From the IMG/VR virus record IMGVR_UViG_3300025108_000233, positions 1 to 31,069 of that record: 31,069 nt of DNA. The stretch is one strand, 5' to 3'. Shown one piece after another: positions 1 through 17,589 of the stretch (its first letter is position 1; the number at the start of each line of letters is the position of its first letter). A program made the translations under genes and the position numbers. The DNA is from a virus. Lineage: Duplodnaviria; Caudoviricetes. The notes below the pieces were generated by a model. It had not been told where the DNA came from and made no database searches. It saw only the letters and a program-made list of their open reading frames with translations.

Positions 1-53
1 ATAAATACTTTTGATTACTCTATTTGAGTAATCATGAATATTTATATATTCAA

Positions 54-114: not shown

Positions 115-144
115 AAAAGAATAAACAAACAAAAGGAGCAAAAA

Positions 145-494: not shown

Positions 495-498
495 TAAA

Positions 499-696
499 AT
501 GAGAGTAATATCGAGTAAAAACCCTTTGACTAAGGAAACTTGGGCATTCGTTAAACTATTAAGAGAGGGTCATGATCATGTCAGTAATGGACACGATCAT
601 AAAGTATATCTACAAAAAGACGTTAATGGCGTTGAGCATTTAGTGACTCAAAACAAAGACGGAAAGATCGAGTCAATAGAAAGATTGGAGGACTAA
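499..696 (+). CDS. Hypothetical protein
   Basis: GGAGG 486-490 before ATG 499. Confidence 0.7.
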   Translation: MRVISSKNPLTKETWAFVKLLREGHDHVSNGHDHKVYLQKDVNGVEHLVTQNKDGKIESIERLED

Positions 697-803
697 TGAC
701 AAAAGAACAACAAGAGAAATTTGAGGAAATACAAAATATAATTAATCAACTTGTGTATGACCTTGAAGATTTAAAAAATGATTTAGAAGATAATAAAAAG
801 TAA
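696..803 (+). CDS. Small acidic coiled-coil peptide (35 aa, MTKEQQEKFEEIQ...)
   Basis: GGAGG SD and TAATG overlap; the stop lies immediately before the ribozyme. Confidence 0.65.
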   Translation: MTKEQQEKFEEIQNIINQLVYDLEDLKNDLEDNKK

Positions 804-806
804 TTC

Positions 807-878
807 ACGAAACACGGTCCACGATAAACGGTCCGTGTCTAGGCTCACGAGTTGAAAGAGCCTACTGACGAGTAACTC
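807..878 (+). ncRNA. Hammerhead ribozyme, type II, with pseudoknot
   Basis: GAAA 809-812; stem III ACACGG 812-817/CCGTGT 833-838; cleavage triplet GTC 837-839; stem I TAGGCTC 840-846/GAGCCTA 858-864; CTGACGA 865-871; stem II AC 807-808/GT 872-873; pseudoknot GAGTT 849-853/AACTC 874-878. Confidence 0.93.
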
Positions 879-895
879 AAACAAAGGAGAGCAAA

Positions 896-1102
896 ATGAA
901 TAACAATATATTACAAGTACAAAACAAGGTCGTTTACGGAAATGATCTCGTCTACCCTGTCTGTGACAAAGCAAAAAAGTTCGCTGATCTTTTATGTGTC
1001 AAAACATTTAATGATCATCACATTTGTAAAATCTTAGACTTAGGGTTTAAATTTGAGTTAGTGGTCGACTCAAAATTTCAAAAAATATTAAATAGGGGGT
1101 AA
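896..1102 (+). CDS. Hypothetical protein (paralog of 2824..3012)
   Basis: AAAGGAG SD; YPVC..A..FA.L...T motif shared with 2824..3012. Confidence 0.8.
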   Translation: MNNNILQVQNKVVYGNDLVYPVCDKAKKFADLLCVKTFNDHHICKILDLGFKFELVVDSKFQKILNRG

Positions 1103-1104
1103 CA

Positions 1105-1335
1105 ATGGCAGATCATATAACCAAGCTAACCGACATCTATAATCGTTGGTTAGACCAAGACGAAAATAAAAACGTTGATAAGGGTTCAGCAGACGATGTT
1201 TTATTATTTGATGAGTCCTTGACGACAGACCAAAAAAACTTTTTAGAGCGTTTTTGTGATTTGTGGGAAACTGCACAAGATCATGAATACGAATTAAAAC
1301 TAAACAGAGCATATAAAGAAGAAAGGAGGTTCTAA
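1105..1335 (+). CDS. Hypothetical protein
   Basis: GGGGG SD-like sequence; tight packing with neighbours. Confidence 0.75.
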   Translation: MADHITKLTDIYNRWLDQDENKNVDKGSADDVLLFDESLTTDQKNFLERFCDLWETAQDHEYELKLNRAYKEERRF

Positions 1336-1796
1336 TGGAAATTAGAATTATCGACAAAAATCAAAAGTTGTTACCTAATAAATTGGGTACACATTTTGGA
1401 AGCGTGATTAATTGGTCACGTTCTCGCTCATGGTTTAAGCTTGACGCTTTAACTATTGGTAATGGTGCTACGGTCTATTATTGGTCCGATCGCCATAGTG
1501 GTACGTTAATTGACGTTATCACTAAAAAAAACGGTAGACGCTTTATTGTGGTTCAAATGGACTATGCTAAGCGTACCGATAGTAATGGCTTTTCAGAAAG
1601 CCAGACCTATGAATTTACGCCTAACCCTGAGGGGCGTAAACATTACGCTGAGGTTATCGACATTGAAACCTCAGAAGGTGAAAGAGGGTTTATTCTCGAA
1701 CCTAGAGAATTTAATCCTAAGACGAACCGTTTTTCAAAAGACGGTAATCGTATCACCTTGGGACATCGGTCCGAGTATTGGGACCCTTCGTTCTAA
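1335..1796 (+). CDS. Phage hypothetical protein with C-terminal G.R.EYWDPSF
   Basis: AAAGGAGG SD and TAATG overlap; 153-aa ORF. Confidence 0.85.
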   Translation: MEIRIIDKNQKLLPNKLGTHFGSVINWSRSRSWFKLDALTIGNGATVYYWSDRHSGTLIDVITKKNGRRFIVVQMDYAKRTDSNGFSESQTYEFTPNPEGRKHYAEVIDIETSEGERGFILEPREFNPKTNRFSKDGNRITLGHRSEYWDPSF

Positions 1797-1798
1797 TA

Positions 1799-2105
1799 TA
1801 CATTTTCTAAGACTCCGATTTGGGGTCTTGGACAATGTGTAAATACTAAGCACGATTGAGATTGAATTTGATCCCTCAATCAATAGACGTGTCTATGGTC
1901 CCTTTCATTGTAGTGGATTAGTTTCAGAGGTAGCCTCTAAGTTTTTCATAACCACTTTAAAAAAAACAAACTTAACTAGCAAGGCACGTGGGACTGTCTA
2001 AAGTGAACCAAAAGGATTTCCTAAGTTACAAGGATCATCACCTTGGCTTTCGTTATCAATCTTCACAAGTCCCACTGACCAAAACTTTTTAAAATAGTTG
2101 GTTGA
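1799..2105. ncRNA. Candidate multi-hairpin non-coding RNA (unassigned)
   Basis: No credible ORF. Stems at 1806-1816/1822-1832, 1854-1860/1875-1881, 1883-1888/1891-1896, 1912-1916/1952-1956, 1926-1930/1934-1938, 1988-1995/2068-2075 and 2029-2033/2041-2045. Confidence 0.5.
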
Positions 2106-2154
2106 AAAAAAAATAAAACTAACAATAAAGAGTATAAGAGATTGAAAAAAAAAC

Positions 2155-2184
2155 TTGAATTTTTTTACGATGTCTCGATATAGT
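2155..2184 (+). promoter_or_regulatory. Sigma70-like promoter for the manA-like RNA
   Basis: TTGAAT 2155-2160, 18-nt spacer, TATAGT 2179-2184, with A-tracts upstream. The predicted +1 (~2191) coincides with the first base of the closing stem. Confidence 0.65.
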
Positions 2185-2190
2185 AAGTAA

Positions 2191-2419
2191 GAAATATAGA
2201 AGGACCTGAAACCAAACAAATTGCAATTTGTTTGGAGGCACTCTGACTGAATAACGATTTTAAAACAGAGTCGTAAGGTATAGGGCTCAAGAAGTATGGC
2301 CAAATGGCTGAGGTCTTGAGAAGTAAGTGCGAGTAGAGAGAGATAAACTATCTGTTCCGTCCGAAAGTTGTGGGTAACAGTTCAAACCCCACGAGTACCC
2401 TCAGGTCCTTCTACGTTTC
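2191..2419 (+). ncRNA. Large structured ncRNA, manA-RNA-motif-like
   Basis: Perfect 13-bp closing stem 2197-2209/2401-2413, extendable to 2191/2419. Internal stems 2212-2235, 2241-2245/2266-2270, 2286-2292/2314-2320 and 2370-2374/2388-2392. GACTGAATAA 2245-2254, TAAGG 2274-2278 and TTGTGGGTAA-CAG...CCCAC resemble conserved manA blocks as I recall them. Confidence 0.7.
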
Positions 2420-2436
2420 AAACAAAGGAGGCTATA

Positions 2437-2466
2437 ATGCTGATTATAGTTCTAGACCCATGGTAG
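2437..2466 (+). CDS. Possible 9-aa micro-peptide MLIIVLDPW
   Basis: Strong SD AAAGGAGG 2424-2431 at canonical spacing; the stop lies inside a terminator hairpin. Confidence 0.35.
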   Translation: MLIIVLDPW

Positions 2467-2484
2467 CCCTTAGGGGCTACTTTT
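2463..2484 (+). terminator. Rho-independent terminator
   Basis: GTAGCCC/GGGCTAC stem followed by TTTT. Confidence 0.65.
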
Positions 2485-2493
2485 CATTAAAAT

Positions 2494-2830
2494 AAAAGGA
2501 GAGCAAATGACTAAACAAGACATACATGAACTCGTGTGGAATTATCTTTTTGATAAAGCATACGATGAAGACAAGCTATTTGAAGAGATTGAGTATCTTC
2601 TCAAATCTTTTGATCAATGGTGTGGTTATACTTCTCAAGAAATTTGGGAATATTGGAATGATAATAAAAAAAGATATGAATTCGGAGACGAGTTTATTCC
2701 TTTTTTGATCAATCACATTACGCTTGATAATAAAACTTATGACGTTGACGGTATCAAAATTACACCGACACTCAAAAAACAATTATTTGTTTTTAAAAAT
2801 AAACTAGAAGAAAAGGAGAGCAAATGACTA
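2494..2830 (+). repeat. 20-bp direct repeat AAAAGGAGAGCAAATGACTA (2494-2513, 2811-2830)
   Basis: Two exact copies, each spanning an RBS and start codon, flanking the 2507..2827 gene. Confidence 0.85.
2507..2827 (+). CDS. Hypothetical protein
   Basis: AAGGAG SD; 106 aa. Confidence 0.8.
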   Translation: MTKQDIHELVWNYLFDKAYDEDKLFEEIEYLLKSFDQWCGYTSQEIWEYWNDNKKRYEFGDEFIPFLINHITLDNKTYDVDGIKITPTLKKQLFVFKNKLEEKESK

Positions 2831-3012
2831 GAGAAAAACAAGACCTACTTGTTAAACGCAATTCAGTCGACTCAAAAAGATTTCACCCTTACTGTGCTAG
2901 GGCTGAAACTTTTGCTTTATTAACAAGAAAACTAACCTTAAATGAAGATGAATTAAATTGGATTGGACTTTTAGGTTATAATATTATAATACTAGATAAG
3001 GAGGTAAAATGA
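2824..3012 (+). CDS. Hypothetical protein (paralog of 896..1102)
   Basis: AAGGAG SD; ATGA overlap. Confidence 0.75.
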   Translation: MTREKQDLLVKRNSVDSKRFHPYCARAETFALLTRKLTLNEDELNWIGLLGYNIIILDKEVK

Positions 3013-3155
3013 GTAAACTAAAACTGCTATATAGAAAAGTAATGTTTTTATTTTCTAAACAAGATCTAGACGCAATTTTAAAGTATGACCCTTTAAACAT
3101 ACTTACAGATAAAAAAATTAAAGGTATATGGTTAGAACAGGAGGAACAAGAATGA
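3009..3155 (+). CDS. Hypothetical protein (48 aa, MSKLKLLYRKV...)
   Basis: AAGGAGG SD; ATGA overlaps at both ends. Confidence 0.7.
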   Translation: MSKLKLLYRKVMFLFSKQDLDAILKYDPLNILTDKKIKGIWLEQEEQE

Positions 3156-3391
3156 CATCAGGCGTACAAGAAAAAAGAAGAATGATTGTCGGTCGAAATC
3201 TTAAATACAAGACCAACGATCCACGAGTCACGCTCCAAAGACTACGAGAGCAACAAGGCTATTTACTTTTAGATTTCACTCACTCAAAGTATTTGGGTAA
3301 AGAAACGCTAAGAGTGAAGATAGACGGAATGGATAGACGTTTTTATGAGCGATATCTATCAGAAAGAAAACTTAATCAGAAAGGAGAATAA
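3152..3391 (+). CDS. Hypothetical protein
   Basis: AGGAGG SD supports a start at 3152 rather than 3128. Confidence 0.7.
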   Translation: MTSGVQEKRRMIVGRNLKYKTNDPRVTLQRLREQQGYLLLDFTHSKYLGKETLRVKIDGMDRRFYERYLSERKLNQKGE

Positions 3392-3709
3392 ATGACGTGG
3401 ACTATACATCAAGGTTATTTGGGAGACCCTAAAGGTCTTCCCATAGCTGACACGTTAATCTTTGTAAAGCACAAAGAAAGAAGTTACGAGGCAATCGCTT
3501 TATATAGTGGAGAACATCGTAACGTTTATAAGAAAGATAAGGACAAGCTTTTCGATTATTTATCGAGTCCAAAATCTTTGAGTAAACAACAATTTGAAAA
3601 TTTTCTAAATCCGAACGATAATTTTATGGACAGAATTTTCAATAAAAGCACGAGAACTTTAGAAATCAAAAAGTTTCTGGAGTCACAATTAGAAAAGGAG
3701 AAAGAATGA
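3392..3709 (+). CDS. Hypothetical protein
   Basis: AAGGAG SD; abuts the upstream stop. Confidence 0.8.
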   Translation: MTWTIHQGYLGDPKGLPIADTLIFVKHKERSYEAIALYSGEHRNVYKKDKDKLFDYLSSPKSLSKQQFENFLNPNDNFMDRIFNKSTRTLEIKKFLESQLEKEKE

Positions 3710-3822
3710 AAATAGACGTAAGATCGAAAGATTGTGTTTATATCACAATAAAGGGAGTTGTTTATTATATTGATGACTCAACAGGAGAACAAATAATAGA
3801 TAAATGGAAGGAGACTAAATAA
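3706..3822 (+). CDS. Hypothetical protein (38 aa, MKIDVRSKDCVYITIKG...)
   Basis: SD plus ATGA overlap. Confidence 0.65.
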   Translation: MKIDVRSKDCVYITIKGVVYYIDDSTGEQIIDKWKETK

Positions 3823-3932
3823 TGGCTATTGTATTTGGAGGCGTTCGCTATGACGAAAAATCTACAGGTGTGGCTAGGTTAAAGAGAAAAGCTAAAAAGA
3901 AAAAAAGTAAAAAGAAAGGAAGAAAAAAATGA
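3822..3932 (+). CDS. Lysine-rich basic peptide (36 aa)
   Basis: AAGGAG SD and TAATG overlap; MAIVFGGVRYDEKSTGVARLKRKAKKKKSKKKGRKK. Confidence 0.6.
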   Translation: MAIVFGGVRYDEKSTGVARLKRKAKKKKSKKKGRKK

Positions 3933-4144
3933 ACGATCAATTAAAAACAGTGGGCATGGTATCAGCTATGTTTGGTATTATGTCTGGAGACGACAGAGAA
4001 GGTAAAGTAAAATATCAAAAAAGATTTTTTGAAACAGTCAATGGAATAAGTTTTCCTGACGATTGGGATAGTTTACCTTTAGAAGAAAAAGAACGTAGAT
4101 TAGAAGAAGTGCAAAAGTTAGCGCTAGAAAAGGAGAAAGAATGA
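3929..4144 (+). CDS. Hypothetical protein
   Basis: ATGA overlap; FPDDWDSLPLEEKERRL motif. Confidence 0.75.
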   Translation: MNDQLKTVGMVSAMFGIMSGDDREGKVKYQKRFFETVNGISFPDDWDSLPLEEKERRLEEVQKLALEKEKE

Positions 4145-4317
4145 AATATAAGTTTGATCATATAATCGATATACTTCTTCATAGAGACGGTTGGTTAAGA
4201 GTGCCATGGTGGGTACCACAAGACCAAGAAAGAGAACAAGAAAGGAGCAATAACTATGAAACACGAGCACGCGTTCAACAATACAATCAATCACGGTCAT
4301 ATCGAAGGACCGTTTGA
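4141..4317 (+). CDS. Hypothetical protein (58 aa, MKYKFDHIIDILLHRDGW...)
   Basis: SD plus ATGA overlap; the 3' end overlaps the next gene. Confidence 0.5.
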   Translation: MKYKFDHIIDILLHRDGWLRVPWWVPQDQEREQERSNNYETRARVQQYNQSRSYRRTV

Positions 4318-4504
4318 TTTTCATTTAGTACAAGTAAACAAACAAGAGGTTTACGTTTACGATCACGGAAATTATTTGTTTAAAACAAAAATTCCTCGTG
4401 TTGATCCTAAATATGTCAATGATGTGAAAGAACTCAAAAACGCAAGAATAAAAGAGATCATTCGCATAGCAAAAAACAAAGTTAGCGATGTCTATTTATA
4501 TTAG
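4256..4504 (+). CDS. Hypothetical protein
   Basis: AAGGAG SD. Confidence 0.7.
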   Translation: MKHEHAFNNTINHGHIEGPFDFHLVQVNKQEVYVYDHGNYLFKTKIPRVDPKYVNDVKELKNARIKEIIRIAKNKVSDVYLY

Positions 4505-4688
4505 AGGCTTTGTTGATTATCCGTTGAGCCAATATTCTAATGAAGAGCTATTGGCTCGACTCAATAAAATAAAGAACATTATTAAAAATTCAGCACATTG
4601 TGATTTAGATGTAAAATTAAAATTAATAATGGAACAAGAAATAAAAGAAAGGGAAGTAAATGACTGTAAAAATAATAAATTGGTCTGA
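4488..4688 (+). CDS. Hypothetical protein
   Basis: Overlapping ORF in the same-strand run; weak SD. Confidence 0.55.
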   Translation: MSIYIRGFVDYPLSQYSNEELLARLNKIKNIIKNSAHCDLDVKLKLIMEQEIKEREVNDCKNNKLV

Positions 4689-5190
4689 AGCTAAAAAACA
4701 GAAGCTTACAAGATATTACAATGGAGTACCCTGTAAGTGGGGACATATTGCTCAACGAGCCACGAGCAATCGTCAATGCATTCGGTGTAAACAAGACGCA
4801 GATAGTTTTCGAAAGAAATCAAAAGAATGGAAAGAAACTCTTTGGAACTTATTAGGTATCCGATTAAGAAGTATGAGAAAAAAAGATTTAAAGAAATTTA
4901 AACATAAACTAAAGTTAACAAGAGAGGATTTATTAGAAATCTATAATCGAACATATAACAAAAGAAAAAAACAACACATTTGCGAAGCTATAAAAACAAT
5001 AGCACTTACTACTGTTTCAGGCCCAAATGTAGTTTCTTTTGATCGTATTGATAACACAAAACCACATACAAAAGAAAATTTAAAATGTGTTTGTTGGTCA
5101 GTTAATAAAGCTAGATCCGACAACAATTCTAAATTTCTTTTTAAAGTGGCCAAATATACAAGAAGATTGGAGTTGGAACATGCCTTGTAA
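4660..5190 (+). CDS. Putative HNH/His-Me-finger (homing-type) endonuclease with N-terminal Zn-binding domain
   Basis: N-terminal RYYNG.PCKWGH..QR..SN.QCIRC; C-terminal C...SFDRIDN.K..TKENL..VCWSVNKAR. Confidence 0.7.
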   Translation: MTVKIINWSEAKKQKLTRYYNGVPCKWGHIAQRATSNRQCIRCKQDADSFRKKSKEWKETLWNLLGIRLRSMRKKDLKKFKHKLKLTREDLLEIYNRTYNKRKKQHICEAIKTIALTTVSGPNVVSFDRIDNTKPHTKENLKCVCWSVNKARSDNNSKFLFKVAKYTRRLELEHAL

Positions 5191-5377
5191 GAATACAGAA
5201 AAATCAGCGATAGACCGTCACGCAAAAAGAAAACGTGATATTTTATCACTGTTAGAAAAATATATCAAAGTACGAAATCAATCTAAAGTTGATATAGTAA
5301 ACAAGAAGTTTGAATATGAAATAGAGAAACTTCGAAACGAATTAACTAACATCAATAAGTTACTTGATGTCATCTAA
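5180..5377 (+). CDS. Hypothetical coiled-coil protein
   Basis: ATG 5180 after GGAG; ends before the terminator. Confidence 0.55.
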   Translation: MPCKNTEKSAIDRHAKRKRDILSLLEKYIKVRNQSKVDIVNKKFEYEIEKLRNELTNINKLLDVI

Positions 5378-5381
5378 TTCA

Positions 5382-5408
5382 TAATGAGGGGGAAACACCC
5401 CCTCATTA
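5382..5408. terminator. Terminator-like hairpin ending the early operon
   Basis: TAATGAGGGG...CCCCTCATTA inverted repeat directly after the stop codon. Confidence 0.65.
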
Positions 5409-5473
5409 AATCTATTTTACTATCTGTTTAAATATTATATAAATAAATAATTCATTTTATGAAAGGATGAACA

Positions 5474-5629
5474 ATGTCTAAAAAAGAAGAACAAAAATGG
5501 GTGTCTCAAATAATTTCTAAAGACACACAAAAGTTATTAGAAAGAATTTGTAAAGATACAATGAGAACAAAACCGACTCAATTACATATAATTGTCAAAG
5601 AATATTACGAAAAATTAGAAAAAGTTTAG
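5474..5629 (+). CDS. Small ribbon-helix-helix-like DNA-binding protein (51 aa)
   Basis: AAAGGA SD; KWVSQIISKDTQKLLERICKDTMRTKPTQLHIIVKEY fits a beta-alpha-alpha Arc/CopG pattern. Confidence 0.55.
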   Translation: MSKKEEQKWVSQIISKDTQKLLERICKDTMRTKPTQLHIIVKEYYEKLEKV

Positions 5630-5664
5630 TATAATTTATGGATAAATTATGATATTTTTTAAGA

Positions 5665-5871
5665 ATGTTGGAGATATTAAAAGATAATCCACACTTCTTT
5701 CAGAAGACTGTCTATAAAGTCGAATACGTTGACGTACCTGACGAAGAAGAAAATACTGTTCAAAAGGTATTAGTTGAATTTACAGACGGTTCAGAGAAGC
5801 TTTATGATTTTACTTTTTGGAAAAAAGTAGTTGAAAGAGGAAAAGAAATTTTAGAGAGAAGAAGAACTTAA
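5665..5871 (+). CDS. Hypothetical protein
   Basis: 68-aa ORF. Confidence 0.6.
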   Translation: MLEILKDNPHFFQKTVYKVEYVDVPDEEENTVQKVLVEFTDGSEKLYDFTFWKKVVERGKEILERRRT

Positions 5872-5993
5872 ATAGTTCTTGCTCTCTCTTCTGTTTGACT
5901 GTCTTCTGGTTTATATTCCTTATATGCAGTCATTTGGGCTATTACGTCCTGTAAGTAGGCTATAACTAGCTTGTTTTCTTGTTCTTCGGTCAT
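5868..5993 (-). CDS. Hypothetical protein (41 aa, MTEEQENKLVIAYLQD...)
   Basis: AAGGAG SD on the minus strand at 5999-6004; converges on the 5665..5871 stop. Confidence 0.55.
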   Translation of the reverse strand: MTEEQENKLVIAYLQDVIAQMTAYKEYKPEDSQTEERARTI

Positions 5994-6111
5994 TAAATCT
6001 CCTTTTTTTTAGCGTGAAAGATCATCATATCAAACTTGGTGTATAAAAAGCCACACATTTATTTTTCATTTTATTAAATAAATGATTTGACTTTTATGAT
6101 AGCATTGTTCC

Positions 6112-6327
6112 ATGCTTAAATTTTTCTTAATTGGTTGGGCCTGTGTCTACTCTAGCACTGAAACAAGTTGTGTTAGAATGGGATCTGAGGTTATTCATAA
6201 TTCTTTAGAAAGTTGTCAACAACATTATAATCTTGTTTTGAAAGAATTATCAAAAGTTGAAGACGTAGAAATAAAATTAACTTGTGTTAATTCAGTTATT
6301 TTAGAAGACTATCTTTTAAACTCTTAA
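6112..6327 (+). CDS. Small Cys-containing, possibly exported protein
   Basis: Hydrophobic N-terminus and four Cys; no SD. Confidence 0.5.
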   Translation: MLKFFLIGWACVYSSTETSCVRMGSEVIHNSLESCQQHYNLVLKELSKVEDVEIKLTCVNSVILEDYLLNS

Positions 6328-8099: not shown

Positions 8100-9547
8100 T
8101 CCTTAAATTCTTCACCCATTATTTCAGAGGCAATATTAATTTTAGAACGAAGACTTTTAATAATGTTTTCATCTACCGTTCCCTCACAGATAAGATCAAC
8201 GTATGTTACTTTCTTCTCTGTACCAATCCTATGATTTCTAGCTTCGGCTTGTTCTCGTATTTCAAGATCATAGTCGTTAGAATAAAATATCATAGTGTTG
8301 GCTATATTTAAAGTTAGTCCGTAACCACCTGTTCGTGGGTGCCCAACTAAAAATCTCATGTGATGATTAGGGTCCTTAAACCTATCTAAAATTTTAGGTC
8401 TTTCTATTGAAGGTGTTTCACCATAAAAACCTTCTGCTGACCCTTTTCCATATTTTTTATCAAGAGCATCAATAACAGTTTTAATGTTATGCCTATAAGA
8501 ACACCAAATAATTATTTTTCCACCACTCTCTTCAACTGTGTCAATCAACTCTTTGACTCTATTTTCTGAAAAATCAATTAAATTTCCTTCATCTGTTGTC
8601 ATATAACCACAGGCTATTTGATGAAGTCTTTTTAATTGAGCAATCAATGTAGCTGTTGTTAATTGCTCTCCTTCTATTTCAGCTAATGCCAATTTTTTCA
8701 TCATTACGTAAGCCTTTAATTGATTATCGGTCATCGGTACACGTCTCTTTAAATAAATTTTATCAGGCAAATCTAACGCTTCGTCTTTCGTGACTCGATA
8801 AGAAAAATTTCTAATCTTCTCTGTCAGTTCATCTAGGCGTTTGTATCCAGTTACTTTATTAAAACTTCTTCCACCAAAACTCATTTTCATTTGATCGCAA
8901 TACCTAGCTTTAAAAGTATAAATAGAACTAAAACCTAATAGATCCTCGTTTAAAAAAGCACACTGAGAATACAAATCTTCAGGAGATTTAGTAATCGGAG
9001 AACCTGTTAAGATGACTCTATACTTGGCATATGTTCCAATTTTAATACACCTTTTTGTTCTTTTAGCTGAACCGTTTTTAATAATAGTAGACTCATCAAC
9101 ACACATTAAAGTTTTGTCAGTGTAAGTAAATTTTTCAGCGATAGAACTTCCGTTCTTTGTAATGATAGAATCTATATTCATAATTAAAACTTTTAATTTA
9201 TTATCGGTAGCAAATAATTTTGATTTAATTTCAGTTTGTTCTTTTTTTGTTTTTGCGCCTTCCCAAACATGAACATCGTATTCAATATGATCAGCTAAAT
9301 GTTTTCCTAATTCTTCTTTCCAATTATATTTAATTCCATTAGGACAGATGACTAAAAGATTATTTATTCTTCCGTTATCAAATAATATAGAAACACCGTC
9401 TATTAAAACTTTTGTTTTTCCACAACCCATTTCCATGAACAAAGCATACTCAGGTGTATCTTTGTCAAAAGAATTCATCATCCCAGCAAGACCAACCAAT
9501 TGATGTTCCATAGGCTTTGTTTTAAACTTGTATTTTTCTACTAACAT
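8087..9547 (-). CDS. SNF2-family (SF2) helicase
   Basis: EMGCGKT (motif I), VDEST (II), LTGSP (III), GGYGLTL (V), QAEARNHRIG (VI). Confidence 0.93.
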   Translation of the reverse strand: MLVEKYKFKTKPMEHQLVGLAGMMNSFDKDTPEYALFMEMGCGKTKVLIDGVSILFDNGRINNLLVICPNGIKYNWKEELGKHLADHIEYDVHVWEGAKTKKEQTEIKSKLFATDNKLKVLIMNIDSIITKNGSSIAEKFTYTDKTLMCVDESTIIKNGSAKRTKRCIKIGTYAKYRVILTGSPITKSPEDLYSQCAFLNEDLLGFSSIYTFKARYCDQMKMSFGGRSFNKVTGYKRLDELTEKIRNFSYRVTKDEALDLPDKIYLKRRVPMTDNQLKAYVMMKKLALAEIEGEQLTTATLIAQLKRLHQIACGYMTTDEGNLIDFSENRVKELIDTVEESGGKIIIWCSYRHNIKTVIDALDKKYGKGSAEGFYGETPSIERPKILDRFKDPNHHMRFLVGHPRTGGYGLTLNIANTMIFYSNDYDLEIREQAEARNHRIGTEKKVTYVDLICEGTVDENIIKSLRSKINIASEIMGEEFKEWLI

Positions 9548-9584
9548 ATATAATATTTTATTCTATATAAGAGAATATAATAAA
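9528..9584. promoter_or_regulatory. Compact divergent promoter region
   Basis: 37-bp AT-rich gap between divergent ATGs; TTGTAT 9528-9533 with TAATAT 9551-9556; TATAAT 9576-9581. Confidence 0.45.
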
Positions 9585-9932
9585 ATGACACAAAAAAGTA
9601 AAGTATATATTGTACAAAACGTAATGAGAAAATATCCTGACGGAACTTTAAGATCGTTAGACTACACTCAAGCTGAAAGATTTGGAGAAGTTATAATTTT
9701 ATTTGACGGAAATAAACAAGTTGTAATGTCTCCACAACCTACTATTCGAAAACTCAGAACTCTTCTAAAAGACTTTAAAGACAACGATTATTTACTTTTA
9801 GTTGGAGATCCAGCATTGATAGGGTTGACTTGTTCGGTAGTAAGTAATATATCTAATGGTAGATATAATATGTTAAAATACGATAGAATAGAAAAAGATT
9901 ATTTTCCTATTCGAGTTGACATTTATAATTAG
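9585..9932 (+). CDS. Phage hypothetical protein at the head of the replication operon
   Basis: KVYIVQ...A..FGE...DF..NDYLLLVGDP; ATG 9585. Confidence 0.8.
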   Translation: MTQKSKVYIVQNVMRKYPDGTLRSLDYTQAERFGEVIILFDGNKQVVMSPQPTIRKLRTLLKDFKDNDYLLLVGDPALIGLTCSVVSNISNGRYNMLKYDRIEKDYFPIRVDIYN

Positions 9933-9950
9933 AATAAAAAGGAGTAATAC

Positions 9951-10493
9951 ATGGCTATTAATTTAAGACGTGAGGAAAAAGATTTCCAAGTAACGGAAGT
10001 TGATCCTATATCGAAAGGCTCTCAAGATTATTTGAAAGCTGAAAAAGAAGTAGAAGATTTAGAAGCTCTTATAAAAGTAAAAAAAGAAGTTCTTCGAAAA
10101 GCAAATGAAAATTTAGTTCAGTTGTTTGAAGAGCGTGGAGTCACTTCTATAAAAATGAAAGACGGTTCTAACGTAGAAATAAAACCGTTTTATACAGGAA
10201 CTATTTCAAAAGAAAAACAAGAAGAAGCTTTTGAATGGTTGCGTGATAATGGGTATGAAGACTTGATAAAAAATCAAGTCATAGTAAAATTTGGTAGAGC
10301 TGAAGATGATAAAGCAAAAAATCTTTTTTCTGATTTAGCTAACCAAGGGTTGGACACTGACAGAAATGTTAAGGTCGAACCGTCTACTCTCAGAGGTTTT
10401 ATTCGTGAAATGGTCGAGGGTGGAAAAGAACTTCCTATGGATACTTTTGGAGTATTTGTAGGACACAAAGTCAATATCAAGAAAGGTAAATAA
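9951..10493 (+). CDS. Phage replication-module protein (coiled coil plus AFEWLR.NG..DLIK motif)
   Basis: AAGGAG SD; V.P.TL..F..E motif; position next to SNF2 and SSB genes. Confidence 0.8.
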   Translation: MAINLRREEKDFQVTEVDPISKGSQDYLKAEKEVEDLEALIKVKKEVLRKANENLVQLFEERGVTSIKMKDGSNVEIKPFYTGTISKEKQEEAFEWLRDNGYEDLIKNQVIVKFGRAEDDKAKNLFSDLANQGLDTDRNVKVEPSTLRGFIREMVEGGKELPMDTFGVFVGHKVNIKKGK

Positions 10494-11336
10494 ATGACAG
10501 AGACAGTAAAAAAGCAAGTAGCGAAACAAGAAAAGGGAACAGACGTAGCGACACTAAGTGGTCTATTAAAGGCGGGTCCCTCACTCTCAAAGAGAGATGC
10601 TGAAGACTATCAAATTCCTTATTTTAATATTTTAAGTAAGGGTGCTCCTCAGCTAGAAGAAGATGACGGTAAGTATATCGAAGGCGCAAAGTTAGGACAG
10701 ATTTTCAATACTGTTACTAACAGAGTTTATGACTCCATAACCGTTTTACCAGTCTACTATCGCAGAAGATTTGTAGAATGGGCAGAGCGTGGAGAAGGAT
10801 CAGGAGCTCCAGTTAACATATATACTCCAGAGCAATTTCAAAAATTCCAAATGGAAGGTAAAGTTGTTCGAGGTGATGATAACAAAGAACGCTTTGTAGG
10901 AAAATCCGATACCTACATCGAAAATACTGCTGAACATTATGTGATCGTACTTGAAGAAGGTGGTTCTTGGAGTAAAGCGATCATTAAAATGAAATCAACA
11001 CAATTAAAAAAATCAAGGACATGGAATTCATTAATGTCCAATCAGAGACGTGTTGAAGGTGATGAAATTTATCAACCAAAAGACTTTGCTCGTGCATACA
11101 CATTATCCACGGTCAAAGAAAAGAACTCAAAGGGTTCTTGGCATGGTTGGGTCATCATTGAAAATAAATGGATTGATGAATTAGGGCTGAAGAGTGTTCA
11201 GACAATAATTGAAGATGCGACACAATTCGAAAAATCAATTCATAGTGGTGATATTGAAATCACTCCGACACAGGATGATGCTAAAAGTTCCCCTCAAGGG
11301 GATGCCTCACAGAATGGTGACGACATACCGTTCTGA
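10494..11336 (+). CDS. Putative ssDNA-binding/annealing protein
   Basis: Acidic tail ending DDIPF; position immediately before the primase. Confidence 0.65.
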   Translation: MTETVKKQVAKQEKGTDVATLSGLLKAGPSLSKRDAEDYQIPYFNILSKGAPQLEEDDGKYIEGAKLGQIFNTVTNRVYDSITVLPVYYRRRFVEWAERGEGSGAPVNIYTPEQFQKFQMEGKVVRGDDNKERFVGKSDTYIENTAEHYVIVLEEGGSWSKAIIKMKSTQLKKSRTWNSLMSNQRRVEGDEIYQPKDFARAYTLSTVKEKNSKGSWHGWVIIENKWIDELGLKSVQTIIEDATQFEKSIHSGDIEITPTQDDAKSSPQGDASQNGDDIPF

Positions 11337-11463
11337 TTAATAGCCCGCGTAAAATTAAGAGTGGTCTTGTCCTCCTATTCCCACTCTTAATCGGTTGGGG
11401 TGTGGTTTTTTCGAGCCTCCTTTCGGACCATGCCCCAACTTAATTAAGGGAGAGGCTATTAAT
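11336..11463 (+). ncRNA. Three-way-junction RNA with two CCUCCU (anti-SD) loops
   Basis: Closing stem 11336-11345/11454-11463; hairpins 11354-11364/11381-11391 and 11393-11407/11426-11440; CCTCCT at 11371-11376 and 11416-11421. Confidence 0.65.
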
Positions 11464-11476
11464 TTGAGAGGTTAAT

Positions 11477-13033
11477 ATGGAATTAGAATTAATTAAAAAG
11501 TTTAAAGAGGTCTTTACAGGTCTTGAGAGAGCTCATGGTGTCTTTTATAAAAAGAATGAGCCACAAGAAGGGCTAAAGGTAGAGGCTAAAATGACCACGG
11601 TCCACGAAGCACCGACCTTGGAAAAATTTGAGCAACACCTAAAAGGAGAATATCCTGCTATGGGTATTGTTCCTATTAATGACGAAGACAAATGTAAGTT
11701 TGGCGTAATTGATATCGATGTTTATCCTCTTGATCACAAAGCTTTACTAAAAATAGTAAAACAAAAAAAGTTTCCTTTAATTATGTGTCTATCAAAAAGT
11801 GGTGGAGCACATTTATACTTATTTACAAAAACATATGTCACAGCAAAAGATATACAAACCAAGTTAAGCGAAATGGCAACAGCTTTAGGTTATCCAAAAG
11901 CTGAGGTATTTCCAAAACAAATTGAACTGTATCAAAGAGAGGGAGAAGAAAAAAGAGATACAGGCAGTTGGATTAATTTGCCTTACCATGGAAGAAGTCG
12001 ATATGGATTAGATCAAAATGGTAACGCGTTAAGTTTAGAAGAATTTCTTTCTCACTACGATAGTCTCGTTGTTGGTGCTCTCAAGTCGATTAAAACCGAT
12101 TTCAAGAACGAGGTTATTAAAGACGGACCTCCATGCCTACAAATACTAACTGAACAGGGTGTTTCTGACGGATCACGTAATAACGCTCTGTTCAATGTAG
12201 GCGTATACTATCGTAAGGCTGATCCTGATAATTACAAGGAATTAGTTGAAGAGTATAACAGAAACTATATTTCACCTCCTCTTAAATCTGATGAAGTTTT
12301 AGTCGTGATAAAACAGGTAAGTCAAAGTGACGGTAATGGTGCGCCTAAGTATATGTATCGTTGTTCTCAACCACCGATTGAGTCTTTATGTAATAAGAGA
12401 CTTTGTAAAAAAAGAAAATTTGGTATTGGAAGTGAAGGTGATAGAGATCATCCAGTTTATTCCGATTTAAAAGTATATAAGTCTGATCCTCCTCGTTATT
12501 TTTTAAATGTTGATGACAGAAGAATAGAGATAGCTAATACAGAAGACTTGATGACACATAAAAAAATTATTCAAGCTTGTTTAGAACAACTTAATAAAGG
12601 TATTATGAACATGAGTTCAGCAGAATGGAATCAAACATATAGTGATTTATTTGAGTCTATTTCTATTGATCACCCACCTGAGGAAGTCACAAAGAAGGGT
12701 GAATTTAAAGAATTGTTAGAAGAGTTTTGCTTACATCAAGGTGAGGCTCTAACAATAGCAGATATATTTTTAGGTAAATCTTATACTGAAGAAGGATTTA
12801 CTTATTTTGCTCTCAAAGACCTAATGGATCATTTAAAAAGAAATGATTTTAAGGAGTCAAGACCTTGGGTAACAATGAGATTAAAAGAAGAATATGATGC
12901 TGAAGACACTATTAGGAGTGTTAAGAACACAAGAATGAGACTATGGAAAATAAAACAGTTGAACATAGAAGATGTGGAGCTAGATATTCCTGATATGAAA
13001 AAAGAAAATAACGAGGAGGAAATACCGTTTTGA
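11477..13033 (+). CDS. Archaeo-eukaryotic-type primase with PriCT-like domain
   Basis: IDID, SKSGGAHLY and NLPY motifs; PPCL...G.RNNALF; ends EEEIPF. Confidence 0.8.
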   Translation: MELELIKKFKEVFTGLERAHGVFYKKNEPQEGLKVEAKMTTVHEAPTLEKFEQHLKGEYPAMGIVPINDEDKCKFGVIDIDVYPLDHKALLKIVKQKKFPLIMCLSKSGGAHLYLFTKTYVTAKDIQTKLSEMATALGYPKAEVFPKQIELYQREGEEKRDTGSWINLPYHGRSRYGLDQNGNALSLEEFLSHYDSLVVGALKSIKTDFKNEVIKDGPPCLQILTEQGVSDGSRNNALFNVGVYYRKADPDNYKELVEEYNRNYISPPLKSDEVLVVIKQVSQSDGNGAPKYMYRCSQPPIESLCNKRLCKKRKFGIGSEGDRDHPVYSDLKVYKSDPPRYFLNVDDRRIEIANTEDLMTHKKIIQACLEQLNKGIMNMSSAEWNQTYSDLFESISIDHPPEEVTKKGEFKELLEEFCLHQGEALTIADIFLGKSYTEEGFTYFALKDLMDHLKRNDFKESRPWVTMRLKEEYDAEDTIRSVKNTRMRLWKIKQLNIEDVELDIPDMKKENNEEEIPF

Positions 13034-14124
13034 AAAAACTTAGATCACAAGTACAAACTGATAACATTACTAATGAGATCAGTAGAATGTTTGACTATCA
13101 ATTTGACGGTCAAACAGAGTTTACTCTACCAGAGTTTCAAAAACCAAAAGAAGGATTTAATATTGGTTTAATTGTTGGAGCTTCAGGAAGTGGTAAATCA
13201 AGTTTATTAAAAGAATATGGAGAAGAAGAAAATATTCAGTGGGACTCAAACAAAGCTGTTTGTTCTCACTTTGATACACCAGAAGAAGCACAAGATAGAT
13301 TATCTTCTGTTGGATTTAATTCTATTCCTTCTTGGATGAGACCTTATCACGTTTTAAGTACAGGAGAAAGATTTCGATCTGATTTAGCTAGGAGAGTAAA
13401 AGATAATGCAGTTATTGATGAATTCACTAGTGTGGTGGACCGTAATGTAGCGAAGTCTTGTTCTAATGCTTTGCAAAAATTTATTCGAAATAAAGATATT
13501 AAAAATGTTGTCTTTGCGTCATGTCACTATGATATCATTGACTGGTTACAACCTGACTGGGTGTTTGATACAAACTCTAGTAAGGTGGTATCACGGGGGT
13601 CTCTTAGGCGACCCAAGATTGTTTTGGAAGTCGTTCCTTGTTCCCACAAAATTTGGTCATACTTCGCTGAGCATCACTATCTCACAGGAAACATCAGTAC
13701 AGCTACACGATGTTGGGTTGCCACATGGAACGGAACCCCAGTCGGATTTTCATCAGTTATCTTTTTTCCCTCAGGAACAATCAAAGAAAAAGCGTGGAGG
13801 GAACACAGGACAGTGATACTTCCTGATTTTCAAGGATTAGGCTTAGGCGTTCGTTTGTCTGAGGCAGTGGCAAAACAATTCACGGTCCTCGGTCATCGTT
13901 TCTTTTCTAAAACAGCTCATCCTCGTTTCGGTGAATATCGAGAAGCTCATCCTGAAAAATGGAGACCAACAACTCATAATAAACAAAATAGAAAAGACGA
14001 TTATGAAAAGGAATTAAATAGAATAGCTACAGGGAAAAAGACTTCCAATTTTGGTGGCTATAGTCAAGAGTTAAGAGAAAAACATAAAGAAAGGGTTTGC
14101 TACGCACATGAGTTTATTGGATAA
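13030..14124 (+). CDS. ABC-type ATPase fused to a GNAT (Mom-like) acyltransferase
   Basis: GASGSGKS, LSTGE, VIDE and SCH; then HHYL...RTVILPDFQGLGLG. TTG start with GAGGAGG SD. Confidence 0.85.
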   Translation: MKKLRSQVQTDNITNEISRMFDYQFDGQTEFTLPEFQKPKEGFNIGLIVGASGSGKSSLLKEYGEEENIQWDSNKAVCSHFDTPEEAQDRLSSVGFNSIPSWMRPYHVLSTGERFRSDLARRVKDNAVIDEFTSVVDRNVAKSCSNALQKFIRNKDIKNVVFASCHYDIIDWLQPDWVFDTNSSKVVSRGSLRRPKIVLEVVPCSHKIWSYFAEHHYLTGNISTATRCWVATWNGTPVGFSSVIFFPSGTIKEKAWREHRTVILPDFQGLGLGVRLSEAVAKQFTVLGHRFFSKTAHPRFGEYREAHPEKWRPTTHNKQNRKDDYEKELNRIATGKKTSNFGGYSQELREKHKERVCYAHEFIG

Positions 14125-15712
14125 GAAAACTCCTACAGTTGTTATTGGTCCCCCAGGGACAGGTAAGACAACTTTCATTTTAAATAAAATAGAAGAATAT
14201 TTATCTAATGAAATAAACATAGATGAGATAGCTTTTTTTTCTTTTTCTAATAAAGCAGTTGATGAGGCTAAACAAAGAGCTTCTCAAAAATTTAAAGTAC
14301 CGTTAAATCAGTTAGAAAATTTTAGTACCTTACACTCTTTCGCATTAAGGCAAATGGGTCTTACGAGAGAGCACATACTAAGTAATAATGATTGGAGGAA
14401 TATATCAAATGAACTTAGGATTAATATTAACGTTAATAATGATGATGACATATTTTTCAACAACTATGACGACAAATATGTTGATCTTATAGAAAAAGCA
14501 AAAAGAAGAGACATACCTTTACGTGATTGTTGGGCCATGTTTGCAAAAGATATTATTTGGCACAAACTAGAGTACATAGATAAGGGATTAAGAGACTACA
14601 AAAACTTTGGTTATGAAAAATTTACAAATGGAACTAATGGGTATTTAGTTAAGGACCAAGGACCAAAAGTAGATTTTACTGACTTAATTACTAACTATGT
14701 TAGTGGAAGCTTTTATAAAGCTTTTAAAGTTGTTTTCTTTGATGAGTCTCAAGACATGTCTACGATACAGTGGAAAATGGCAGAAAAAATATGGAGAAAC
14801 TCAGAAAAAAGTTACCTCGCTATGGACCCTAATCAGGCTATTTATACTTGGGCAGATGCAGATGTATCAAAAGCAATACAAGTTAAAGATGAAGCTAAAA
14901 ATATAATTGTTTTGGATCAATCAAAGAGAGTTCCAAGAAAAGTTTGGGAAATTGTTAATCGTGTTGAAGAACAGATTATAGGCTATGATGATATTAAATG
15001 GTCTCCTGCTAACAGAGATGGATCTGTTGAGTTTATTAGAGGCATGTATCACTTAGATATGAACCAAGGTTCATGGTTGATAATGGGTAGAACAAGAACT
15101 ATTCGTGATGACATGGAAGAAGTCATGAGAAAGAAAAATATATTTTTTAGAGTTAAATTAAAAGACAGTAAATACAGATATTCTATTGGAAGTAAGGAAA
15201 GAAATGCTATTCTTACTTGGAAAGATTTGATGAGAAATGAAAGCAATCAAGTTCCTATAAGGTTGATAGAAAATCTATACAAGTGTTTAGGAAAAGAATA
15301 CGTAGTTCGTGGTAATAAAAAACTTATCGCAGAACAAAGAAAAGCTTTTCCTGATAAGAAATTATCTTTCAAAGATCTGAAAGATGATTTTGGACTAACA
15401 GTTGACTTTGACACGCCTTGGACAGAAGTAATGACAACAATTAATACAGAAACAAAAGCGTACTTAGAAAACTTAGAAACAAGAGGCGAAGACTTAGCCT
15501 TAGAACCAAGAGTAACATTATCTACTATTCATCAACAAAAAGGTGGTGAAGCAGACAATGTTATTGTTTCATTAGATATAGGAAAAATGGCATACGAAGA
15601 ATATCGTATTAATCCGATTAGCGAACATAGATTATTTTATGTTGCTTTTTCTAGAGCTAAAGAAAACTTATTTATAATAACGCCACAATCGCGGGAGGCA
15701 TATAGAATATGA
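14108..15712 (+). CDS. UvrD/Rep-like SF1 helicase
   Basis: GPPGTGKT, TLHSF, DESQD, DPNQAIY, TIHQQKGGEAD and YVAFSRAK. Confidence 0.92.
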   Translation: MSLLDKKTPTVVIGPPGTGKTTFILNKIEEYLSNEINIDEIAFFSFSNKAVDEAKQRASQKFKVPLNQLENFSTLHSFALRQMGLTREHILSNNDWRNISNELRININVNNDDDIFFNNYDDKYVDLIEKAKRRDIPLRDCWAMFAKDIIWHKLEYIDKGLRDYKNFGYEKFTNGTNGYLVKDQGPKVDFTDLITNYVSGSFYKAFKVVFFDESQDMSTIQWKMAEKIWRNSEKSYLAMDPNQAIYTWADADVSKAIQVKDEAKNIIVLDQSKRVPRKVWEIVNRVEEQIIGYDDIKWSPANRDGSVEFIRGMYHLDMNQGSWLIMGRTRTIRDDMEEVMRKKNIFFRVKLKDSKYRYSIGSKERNAILTWKDLMRNESNQVPIRLIENLYKCLGKEYVVRGNKKLIAEQRKAFPDKKLSFKDLKDDFGLTVDFDTPWTEVMTTINTETKAYLENLETRGEDLALEPRVTLSTIHQQKGGEADNVIVSLDIGKMAYEEYRINPISEHRLFYVAFSRAKENLFIITPQSREAYRI

Positions 15713-17589
15713 GTAAACAAATAGGAATGTTTAAACCAAAATCCGAGTGGGTTCCACCTATGGATTTTCCAAATATCAAAGACGCAGATAAAATAGCAAT
15801 AGATTTAGAGACTAAGGATCCAAACATTATGGCGAAAGGCCCAGGTTGGGCTACTAATGACGGAGAAATAATTGGTGTTGCCATAGCTGTAGACGGTTGG
15901 AAGGGGTATTATCCTATCCGACATGAGACAGGATTTAATCACGATCCACGAGTCGTGTTTGACTGGCTAAATGAAATGCTTTCAGGCGAAGGAGAAAAGA
16001 TAGCTCATAACGCTACCTATGACTTTGGTTGGTTAGAAGCTGAAGGAGTCAAATGGAACGGTCGTATCATTGATACAATGATTGCTGCTCCGTTAATTAA
16101 TGAAAACAAATTTAGTTATTCTTTGAATGCAGTATCAAAAGAGTATTTAGCTGAAAGTAAAAACGAATTTCTTTTAAATGAAACAGCAGCACAATGGGGT
16201 GTTAATCCTAAAAGCGAAATGTTTAAAATACCTTCTCAATATGTAGGAGAATATGCTGAACAAGATGCAGTGCTATCTTTAAAACTTTGGGATAGATTAA
16301 AACCTGAAATAGTTAAACAAGATCTTGAAACAGTTTTTGATTTAGAAACTGACCTTATACCTATTCTTATGAAGATGAGAAAAAAAGGCGTAAGAGTTGA
16401 TTTAGAACAATTAAAGAAAGCTGAAAAAACGTTTATTAAAAAAGAAAACGAGTTAATGAAATTTATTTTCGACAAGACAGAACTCAAATGTGATATATGG
16501 GCTGCTCGTTCTATTGCCACTGTTTTTGATCAATGTAAGATTGAATACCCTAAAACAGATAAAGGTAATCCTAGTTTTACAAAAAGCTTTTTAGAGTTTC
16601 ACCCTCATCCTGTACCCAAGGCAATTGTTCAGGCCAGAAATTTCAACAAGGCACGGACCACGTTCCTTCATACGATAGAAAAATATCAACATAATGGAAG
16701 AATACATGCAAATATTAATCAACTACGAACAGAAAATGGTGGTACGTTGACAGGTCGATTTAGTTATTCTAACCCTAATCTTCAACAAATTCCTGCGAAA
16801 GACGATGCTCAATCAGATATTAAAATCGGTTCCTTAGTTCGAGGATTATTTTTGCCTGAAGAAGGAGAGAAGTGGGGTTCTTTTGACTACTCTCAACAAG
16901 AGCCACGACTCGTGAGCCACTATGCGAATATCGTGAAACTAGAGGGTGCTGAAAAAATTGTGAAAGCTTATAACGAAAATAAAGAAACAGATTTTCATAC
17001 AATCATGGCTGAAATAGGAAATATACCTCGTAAGAGCGCTAAAACCATAAATTTAGGACTATTTTATGGTATGGGTGTAGGAAAATTATCTGATCAATTA
17101 GGTATTGATCCTGAGGAAGGTAAGTCTTTGATTAAACAATATAATGAGAGAGTTCCTTTTGTTCGACAGTTAGCTAATGCAGTCTCTGATCATGCGAATA
17201 AAAGAGGTGCAGTGAAGACTTTCTTAGGTCGAAGATGTCGTTTTGAATTATGGGAGCCAAAAGCATTTGGTTCTTACAAAGCGTATCCTTTGGATAGAGC
17301 TAAAGAAGAGTATGGTGAATATACTCCTTTGAAAAGATCAGGGACATATAAAGCTTTAAATAGGTTGATACAAGGATCAGCGGCTGATCAAACAAAAAAA
17401 GCCATGATTGATTTAGATAAAGAAGGTATCAATCCTATGATTCAAATTCACGATGAACTAGCCATTAGTCTTAATGGTGATCCTGAAGTGGAGAAAAAAG
17501 TTATCGATATTATGGAAAACACGATTGAAATGAGTGTTCCTTCCAAGGTCGATGTAGCAATAGGAAACAATTGGGGAGAAGCAAAATGA
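15709..17589 (+). CDS. polA: Family A DNA polymerase with 3'-5' exonuclease
   Basis: IDLET, HNATYD, YAEQD; TGRFS.SNPNLQQIP; DYSQQEPR (A); RKSAKTINLGLFYG (B); IHDEL (C). Confidence 0.96.
   Translation: MSKQIGMFKPKSEWVPPMDFPNIKDADKIAIDLETKDPNIMAKGPGWATNDGEIIGVAIAVDGWKGYYPIRHETGFNHDPRVVFDWLNEMLSGEGEKIAHNATYDFGWLEAEGVKWNGRIIDTMIAAPLINENKFSYSLNAVSKEYLAESKNEFLLNETAAQWGVNPKSEMFKIPSQYVGEYAEQDAVLSLKLWDRLKPEIVKQDLETVFDLETDLIPILMKMRKKGVRVDLEQLKKAEKTFIKKENELMKFIFDKTELKCDIWAARSIATVFDQCKIEYPKTDKGNPSFTKSFLEFHPHPVPKAIVQARNFNKARTTFLHTIEKYQHNGRIHANINQLRTENGGTLTGRFSYSNPNLQQIPAKDDAQSDIKIGSLVRGLFLPEEGEKWGSFDYSQQEPRLVSHYANIVKLEGAEKIVKAYNENKETDFHTIMAEIGNIPRKSAKTINLGLFYGMGVGKLSDQLGIDPEEGKSLIKQYNERVPFVRQLANAVSDHANKRGAVKTFLGRRCRFELWEPKAFGSYKAYPLDRAKEEYGEYTPLKRSGTYKALNRLIQGSAADQTKKAMIDLDKEGINPMIQIHDELAISLNGDPEVEKKVIDIMENTIEMSVPSKVDVAIGNNWGEAK

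Follow-up and report, generated by a model that had tools for sequence, protein, structure and literature searches.

The window, the whole 31,069-nt stretch of DNA that was analysed, belongs to an uncultured marine phage of the HTVC023P type and covers part of its podophage-like genome. Its PolA is 47-51% and its primase 30-38% identical to those of HTVC023P, HTVC027P, 023Pt_psg01 and DSL-LC04, and gene order is shared with all four; on these protein comparisons the replication module is related to that of HTVC023P/HTVC027P. Phages of this type are described as widespread (PMC9599517). No tRNA was found in the 16 stretches examined. Bacteriovoracaceae were considered as host and set aside; a single 1.8-kb contig in a Bacteriovoracaceae bin is too short for trust.

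Two genes on the + strand flank the element described here. The upstream gene (10494..11336, 280 aa; PHROG 2402 / Pam3 gp34-like) encodes a protein with an acidic tail ending in DIPF. The fold of its structural model (pLDDT 78.7) was closest to a phiC31 integrase-RDF fusion chain (Z 8.5, rmsd 4.5 over 153), followed by the BRCA2 OB fold (Z 6.3), T4 gp32 (Z 5.5) and then mostly OB-fold SSBs; Foldseek with the same model returned no match at E<=0.001. Because of these fold matches and the DIPF tail, the name SSB-like, and with it the first-pass annotation of the gene as an SSB, is reasonable though not proven. The downstream gene (11477..13033, 518 aa; PHROG 21866, AEP-TOTE + PriCT-1) encodes an AEP-type primase preceded by the Shine-Dalgarno (SD) sequence GAGAGG at 11466..11471. 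The slot 3' of the primase is swappable, being occupied in the window by an ATPase-GNAT fusion (13030-14124, +) and in clades B and C, defined below, by genes with methyltransferase-like N-termini; in the window and relatives alike the gene in this slot always starts with a TTG that overlaps the primase stop.

The 128-nt spacer between the SSB-like gene and the primase gene (11336..11463, + strand) folds as a three-way junction with an MFE of -48.3 kcal/mol (z -5.09; 0/200 shuffles as good); the minus strand reaches -42.6 kcal/mol (z -4.07). The closing stem, P1, has 10 bp (11336-11345/11454-11463), and its first base is the last base of the SSB stop codon. Its 5' strand (11336..11345) holds the nearly invariant core TAATAGC (identity 0.89) and its 3' strand (11454..11463) the nearly invariant GCTATTA, with no U-tract after it. 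The linker J1/2 (11346..11353, often GCGTAA) leads into hairpin 1 (P2, 11354..11391), in which 11 bp (11354-11364/11381-11391) carry a 16-nt pyrimidine loop with CCTCCT at 11371-11376. Hairpin 2 (P3, 11393..11440) has a stem of 14-15 bp (11393-11407/11426-11440) with tandem U-G/G-U pairs, a TTTT bulge and an apical stem of 4 bp (11412-11415/11422-11425) that closes a 6-nt loop, CCTCCT at 11416-11421. A variable linker, J3/1 (11441..11453; 2-17 nt among elements, with SD-like purines in the 12 closest), returns to P1, and the primase SD, which lies outside the fold, follows the 3' end of P1 after 2-5 nt.

The first-pass annotation had described two hairpins with CCTCCT in each loop, enclosed by a 10-bp stem that ends just before the primase SD, and all of its coordinates are correct for the window (P1 ends at 11463, the SD begins at 11466). 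Its picture of two long anti-SD hairpins overlooked the TTTT bulge and the 4-bp apical stem of hairpin 2. Owing to these two features, the exposed loop consists of CCUCCU exactly, with AG and UU on either side in weak pairs. The alphaproteobacterial 16S tail is CCUCCUUUC. The 16S end of G018 reads CCTCCTT, preceded by GATCA. CCUCC is described as the anti-SD core (PMC4117421).

Relatives were collected by primase searches in IMG/VR and in metagenome contigs. Both genes were present in 195 loci, which gave 107 distinct spacers; an additional locus whose two genes overlap was left out. Type A comprises 23 distinct spacers with primases at least 84% identical, all of which form the three-way junction. 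Type B (6 distinct spacers, primase 78-80%) has a single long hairpin of ~15 bp with a large loop containing TTCTCC in 6/6, with CTCCTC in five and CTCCAC in one. Type C (12 distinct spacers, primase 75-77%) has a short, terminator-like hairpin followed by T's (TTTT/TTT). Plain hairpins were present in the 7 distinct spacers with primases of 44-50%, and most distant relatives carry some hairpin at this junction; CCTCC was found in one of 59 distant spacers, within a stem. In a quick primase tree A (99) and B (99) formed clades, and A+B grouped against C (SH-aLRT 87). The simplest history is that a plain intercistronic hairpin gained an anti-SD loop once, in the A+B ancestor, and the P1 core TAGC/GCTA seems to resemble the clade C stem. 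TAGC/GCTA is not special as a genome-wide hairpin code (rank 31 of 256 4-mers). In one clade B lineage (L030/L087) a further hairpin, of 13 bp, is inserted after the SSB stop and ahead of the anti-SD hairpin.

A covariance model built from 10 close sequences picked up every one of the 23 type A elements. Run over 64 sources (1.04 Mb), it hit each of 8 clade A genomes once and nothing else; across this set the element is single-copy and confined to clade A. A blastn search of the element against 50,697 phage records gave no match. No clear counterpart emerged from a generic scan for long hairpins with an anti-SD sequence in the loop, either in clade C or in ~50 kb each of HTVC023P, HTVC027P and DSL-LC04. 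Two loose pattern scans produced no new type: among 240 matches listed 8 were kin, all from clade B, and L063 was discarded as a chance pattern match.

The comparison of SSB-primase spacers from relatives, proposed with the first-pass annotation, revealed a selected + strand structure with a conserved exposed anti-SD tip. In the covariance-model alignment of the 23 elements 95.3% of 758 cells are paired and 21/34 pairs change on both sides, figures that lean high, the sequences being related and their alignment having been fitted to the model; 0/500 shuffles scored as high, and slid controls gave 37-46%. An independent, model-free MAFFT/RNAalifold alignment, in which P2 was misaligned, gave both-side changes in 11/26 pairs, in P1 and P3. 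P1 is conserved in sequence (7/9 pairs never vary), and P2 and P3 are conserved in structure only, with both-side changes in 9/11 and 10/14 pairs respectively. The apical stem of hairpin 2 varies compensatorily among relatives (CGA/UCG vs CCG/CGG); the L010/L017 lineage has one large open loop in its place. Non-Watson-Crick cells were G-U in 58 cases and A-C in 5, and the + strand folded better in 23/23 elements, in agreement with the earlier remark that the G-U pairs of hairpin 2 favour this strand. The spacer fold likely acts as an RNA made from the SSB-primase transcript, and the mRNA of the SSB-like gene is likely to carry it as its 3' UTR.

The most conserved part is the tip of hairpin 2. 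The motif CCTCCTTT (11416..11423, +; as RNA CCUCCUUU) is present in 23/23 distinct elements with an unpaired probability of 0.77-1.00. Loop 1 is 85% pyrimidine; it contains CCTCC in 15/23 elements and CCTCCT in 9/23 and is U-rich where CCTCC is lacking, so that of the two anti-SD loops of the first-pass annotation one is obligatory. Identity among 10 lineage representatives was 0.48-0.62 for the P2/P3 strands, 0.36 for loop 1, 0.32 for J3/1 and 0.59 for fourfold primase sites. The invariance of the loop-2 motif while stems, loop 1, J3/1 and fourfold sites vary indicates that it is under strong selection as an exposed sequence. A CCTCCT loop that varied over conserved stems had been named as evidence against the anti-SD reading; loop 2 behaves in the opposite way, being more conserved than its stems. 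The structured element in the spacer is thus real and undescribed; it is restricted to one clade, and its anti-SD tip is invariant.

Rfam contained no match at gathering across the window, none related at E<=10 within 11250-11520, and none at E<=1 for the loci of 8 relatives. The first-pass annotation had pointed to the cuckoo/alpha-r14 RNAs of Alphaproteobacteria (RSs0680/CcsR, alpha-r14/ar14 RF02344, NfeR1; PMC4615179, PMC8034643), and PMC4615179 defines the cuckoo family by 2-4 adjacent hairpins that each carry CCUCCUCCC and form no multiloop. The size criteria of that family (hairpins 24-50 nt, helix at least 6 bp, linker up to 10 nt) are satisfied in the window, where the hairpins measure 38 and 48 nt with 11 and 15 bp and a 1-nt linker. 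The exact motif CCTCCTCCC occurs in 0/23 elements (variants allowed by Fig. 3C of the cuckoo paper left out), and the element carries CCUCCUUU instead; loop 1 is without even CCTCC in 8/23. P1 closes a multiloop in 23/23 elements, whereas the cuckoo family model removes multiloops, and an RNA trimmed of P1 may be conceivable. Here there is also a single obligatory loop, and the location is a phage replication operon with the SSB-like gene and the primase as neighbours, the adjacent DUF1127 gene of the cuckoo/CIN1 criterion being absent. Since both the CCUCCUCCC motif and the lack of a multiloop fail, the element is not a cuckoo/ar14/CcsR member, though it shares their design principle and, by analogy, likely works as they do.

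Other systems resemble the element in part. The P1/P7 c4 (RF01695) and P4 CI antisense RNAs are cut from a longer transcript, consist of stem-closed hairpins whose loops pair with targets, and act on specific complementary boxes in their own transcript. The plan is the same here, a phage RNA of stem-closed hairpins with pairing loops, with processing proposed only; Rfam gave no c4 (RF01695) match, and no covarying complementary box was found in the element's operon. The 6C sRNA of Actinobacteria is likewise a hairpin RNA with C-rich loops, reported to pair with many mRNAs without Hfq/ProQ (PMC6486639), but it is chromosomal, its loops are runs of C and not an anti-SD copy, and it has no sequence or model match to the element. 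An intrinsic terminator was rejected: 0 terminator-like sites were found in 9400-11700, and no U-tract follows P1. Promoter-like sites beside the element were at chance level (8 vs 7.4 expected). The RNA family was not found in Rfam 15, in the literature searched or in 6 supplement files of PMC10690425, 3 others of which may list it, and no description of a phage anti-SD-loop RNA was found in the literature searched.

Candidate targets were sought among RBSs. The best predicted pairing site in the window is the RBS of a 153-aa early gene (1321..1332, +), where the 9-nt complement noted earlier at 1321-1329 extends to 12 bp with one G-U; it is kept in 3 close relatives and lost in the clade A orthologue in G004, and was rejected as a specific target. 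The other complement noted earlier, that of loop 2 (11414-11423) to the RBS at 2424..2433 (+) of a conserved 8-9 codon ORF behind a manA-like RNA, is exact over 10 nt as claimed. Four of these 10 nt are paired in the apical stem and therefore 6 are exposed. A complement of at least 10 nt among the 14 AGGAG sites of bases 1-6100 arose in 3543/5000 flank shuffles (71%), so the match is without specificity. The RBS core AAGGAGG is kept in 12/12 aligned loci, 5 of them clade C loci without the element, and its flanks do not track the loop type. The 2424 RBS was accordingly dropped as a specific target. No RBS was found to change together with the loop, flanks not following the AGCC/GGCC/GTCC loop types, and among the matches listed no gene ranked first for loop pairing across genomes.

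In clade B a hairpin with a UUCUCCUC loop (L089 8985-9060, L101 8460-8540 and other clade B loci) is complementary to the RBS of an early DUF932 gene over 11 nt in L089 and 14/15 nt including the AUG in L101. Among the loci studied this early gene occurs only in clade B, and its RBS is present in 2 loci only; by inspection the L101 loop fits the L089 site equally well, and the pair was rejected as a covarying target and kept as a lead only. A direct copy of the loop motif inside the SSB CDS (L089 near 8280, L092 near 4160) changes in parallel with the clade B loop, reading TTCTCCTC in one sublineage and TTCTCCAC in another and being absent at 8 nt in others. It is probably a chance match.

At the level of gene classes, clade A RBSs pair with loop 2 at -9.9 kcal/mol for early (n=164), -8.2 for replication (n=72) and -7.0 for late/other genes (n=156). 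Clade C, compared with G002 left out, shows the same order without the element (-11.7, -10.1 and -6.4), and the gradient is therefore a property of early genes; it says what an anti-SD RNA would target, not that targeting occurs. GGAGG is scarcer in clades A and B: in clade A it precedes 4% of replication-operon starts vs 32% in clade C and 0% vs 100% of primase genes, and in 43 orthologous groups it was rarer in A in 12, commoner in 2 and tied in 29. AGGAGG made up 42/210 AGGAG-type sites in A, 3/35 in B and 89/191 in C. In mean RBS pairing to the 9-nt core, clade A orthologues were no different from those of clade C (p 0.46), since AAAGGAG takes the place of GGAGG in A. Gene starts for these comparisons came from a home-made caller and were chosen partly by SD score, which favours SD-bearing starts. 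The scarcity of GGAGG in clade A fits escape from the exposed 6-nt loop on a single branch of the tree; as one evolutionary contrast it could also reflect drift or host change.

The best reading, slightly more likely than not, is that the element is a generic trans-acting anti-SD RNA that damps strong-SD translation as a class, with no one dedicated target. The earlier proposal of an sRNA blocking AGGAGG-type RBSs is retained for its exposed, conserved anti-SD tip and given up for the single named target at 2424. The RNA would be made in quantity, since the element follows the SSB gene and there is no above-chance promoter beside it. P1 would close it into a stable unit that is cut out or survives decay, much as CcsR RNAs are described as processed from a 3' UTR (PMC8034643). 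The invariant CCUCCU(UU) tip would pair in trans with accessible GGAGG/AGGAG RBSs and lower their translation, the 6-nt loop nucleating pairing and the short apical stem with its U bulge opening so that it grows to 8-12 bp. Repression would fall most heavily on mRNAs of the phage's own early genes and on strong-SD host mRNAs, with replication and late genes of weak SDs spared, and ribosomes would shift from early and host mRNAs to replication and late ones.

Such an outcome would make the element an RNA counterpart of T4 RegB, an endoribonuclease reported to cut GGAG and inactivate the SDs of early mRNAs as the phage moves to later stages (PMC9409239). The likeness lies in the proposed inactivation of SDs on early mRNAs toward later stages; RegB is a protein nuclease, whereas the RNA here is predicted to occlude the SD site. 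The trans-acting reading draws support from the fold, the covariation, the strand, the invariant exposed loop, the single copy per genome and the clade distribution, and from sister clade B, which keeps another pyrimidine motif in a different long hairpin at the same place. Against it, no target covaries with the loop, and clade C phages manage without the element. Regulatory RNAs of lytic marine phages are almost uncharted; if the reading is true, phages can switch translation from early to late or from host to phage by means of a 130-nt RNA and not a protein like RegB. The three clades, which carry in turn a plain hairpin, a single anti-SD hairpin and the three-way junction, form a natural series for the origin of such an RNA.

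In clade C a unit is repeated 5' of each early gene (G001 12500-16500, G002 51300-55300, G008 and G011), consisting of a GC-rich hairpin, GTGTCT and a small covarying stem with the SD in its loop. The stems (ATAGC/GCTAT, ATGGC/GCCAT, GTAGC/GCTAC; 5-6 bp) present AATAGGAG, and the unit looks like a shared translational operator or processing site. The AATAGGAGGC(T/C) of this unit has an exact complement in loop 1 of the window (CCTCCTATT) and in both common variants of loop 2 ((A/G)GCCTCCT). One metagenome contains members of all three clades (L026, L032, L037). A decidedly unlikely extension of the trans-acting reading is that the lineage made an ordinary intercistronic hairpin into an RNA competing with the ribosome for AGGAGG, rewired its own replication RBSs to evade it and gained a weapon against co-occurring clade C phages through loop-loop kissing. 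Any strong SD matches an anti-SD, and the clade C unit may simply be the ancestral early RBS.

Among the rival explanations, a cis element is possible though unlikely. P1 would bring the SSB stop beside the primase SD and set the SSB:primase ratio by coupling, processing or stabilisation, with the loops pairing to the J3/1 purines or the primase SD. Its position is fixed, and the placement of P1, from the SSB stop to 2-5 nt short of the SD, makes a role in coupling or processing plausible; such a role for P1 can coexist with one in trans. The resemblance of the P1 core to the plain-hairpin stem of clade C and the presence of some hairpin in most distant relatives agree with it. Pairing of 4-7 bp between loop 1 and J3/1 is possible in 15/23 elements, and one lineage switches the two from CCUCC/GGAGG to UUUGUU/AACAAA, an apparently compensatory change, but matching loop 1 with its own J3/1 gives no gain in pairing over mismatched combinations (50 vs mean 47, p 0.25) and J3/1 is just 2-5 nt long in 7/23 elements, and the loop 1-J3/1 pseudoknot was rejected on that p value. 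The cis switch on primase translation offered in the first-pass annotation fares poorly: loop 2 pairs with the primase SD over 4-6 bp at most, its tip likely cannot reach the SD where J3/1 has 2 nt, and the primase SD varies while loop 2 is invariant, the sister-clade SD (AAGGGA or GGAG) being mismatched in most members.

That the tip mimics the 16S 3' tail as a decoy for a protein (an anti-SD-cleaving toxin, a defence nuclease, a ribosomal protein or a pyrimidine-binding factor), with no mRNA pairing, is very unlikely. It would explain why CCUCCUUU is invariant without a covarying mRNA target, and the invariant P1 sequence suggests protein recognition; yet the element lacks the bases that precede the core in the 16S tail (in G018, GATCA), the base before CCUCC being G or U, clade B uses another register (UUCUCCUC), and the long pyrimidine flanks suit pairing with purine-rich RBSs. 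A structure in ssDNA, serving as origin or as priming site for the adjacent AEP primase with the pyrimidine loop as template, is highly improbable. The location between SSB and primase, the folding of the + strand as DNA (z -6.1) and the preference of G-T for one strand in ssDNA as well would be accounted for, but a cruciform would be broken by the conserved tandem wobbles and the 58 G-T cells, the loops of clades B and C are unrelated beside primases 75-80% identical, GC skew follows the coding strand with no switch here, and the motif equals the anti-SD. Scarcely credible is a minus-strand RNA showing GGA loops in the manner of a CsrA/RsmA sponge, or a relic left by inverted RBS units. In favour, the minus strand likewise has a fold (z -4.1), in which both loops show AGGAGG, and P1 with J3/1 resembles the early-gene RBS unit of clade C, but the 58:5 ratio of G-U to A-C and the better + strand fold in 23/23 point the other way, no start codon follows either minus-strand AGGAGG in the window, and the heavy compensatory change argues against a relic.

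Coverage in RNA libraries was inspected for the region. Of 14 sequencing runs listed, 9 are recorded as RNA, with small shares (0.05-0.19) of the region. Short contigs over the element occurred in 2/4 RNA runs, from different studies (161 and 233 nt, depth 2-3), one of them reaching from the SSB end into the primase; in runs X1 and X2 only the SSB end is covered. These contigs place the sequence in RNA libraries and no more, as ends, strand and DNA carry-over are not readable from them.

Further features were observed elsewhere in the window. At 6085-6115 (+) a promoter-like TTGACT-17-TAGCAT stands directly 5' of the ATG of a 71-aa gene without an SD, an arrangement found again in clades A and B and one by which the mRNA is likely leaderless. 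More strong hairpins lie at 1800-1845 and 1855-1885, 3' of the 153-aa early gene, and are conserved in several relatives. Within 2150-2480 (+) a 230-nt structured RNA (about 2190-2418) shows strong covariation, at 26/63 pairs in 11 loci, and matches manA RF01745 below the gathering threshold (24 bits vs 55.2, E 5e-4). It has a conserved sigma70-like promoter (TTGAAT-17-TATAGT) on its 5' side and, on its 3' side, a strong SD, the conserved 8-9 codon ORF and a terminator. This ORF shows synonymous changes among loci; the peptides encoded are MLIIVLDPW, MFIVLDPW and MIVIVIDDW. The RNA, present in clades A and C, is a candidate divergent manA variant with a mini-peptide; manA RNAs are described as forming cages by kissing loops (bioRxiv 10.64898/2026.07.01.735769).
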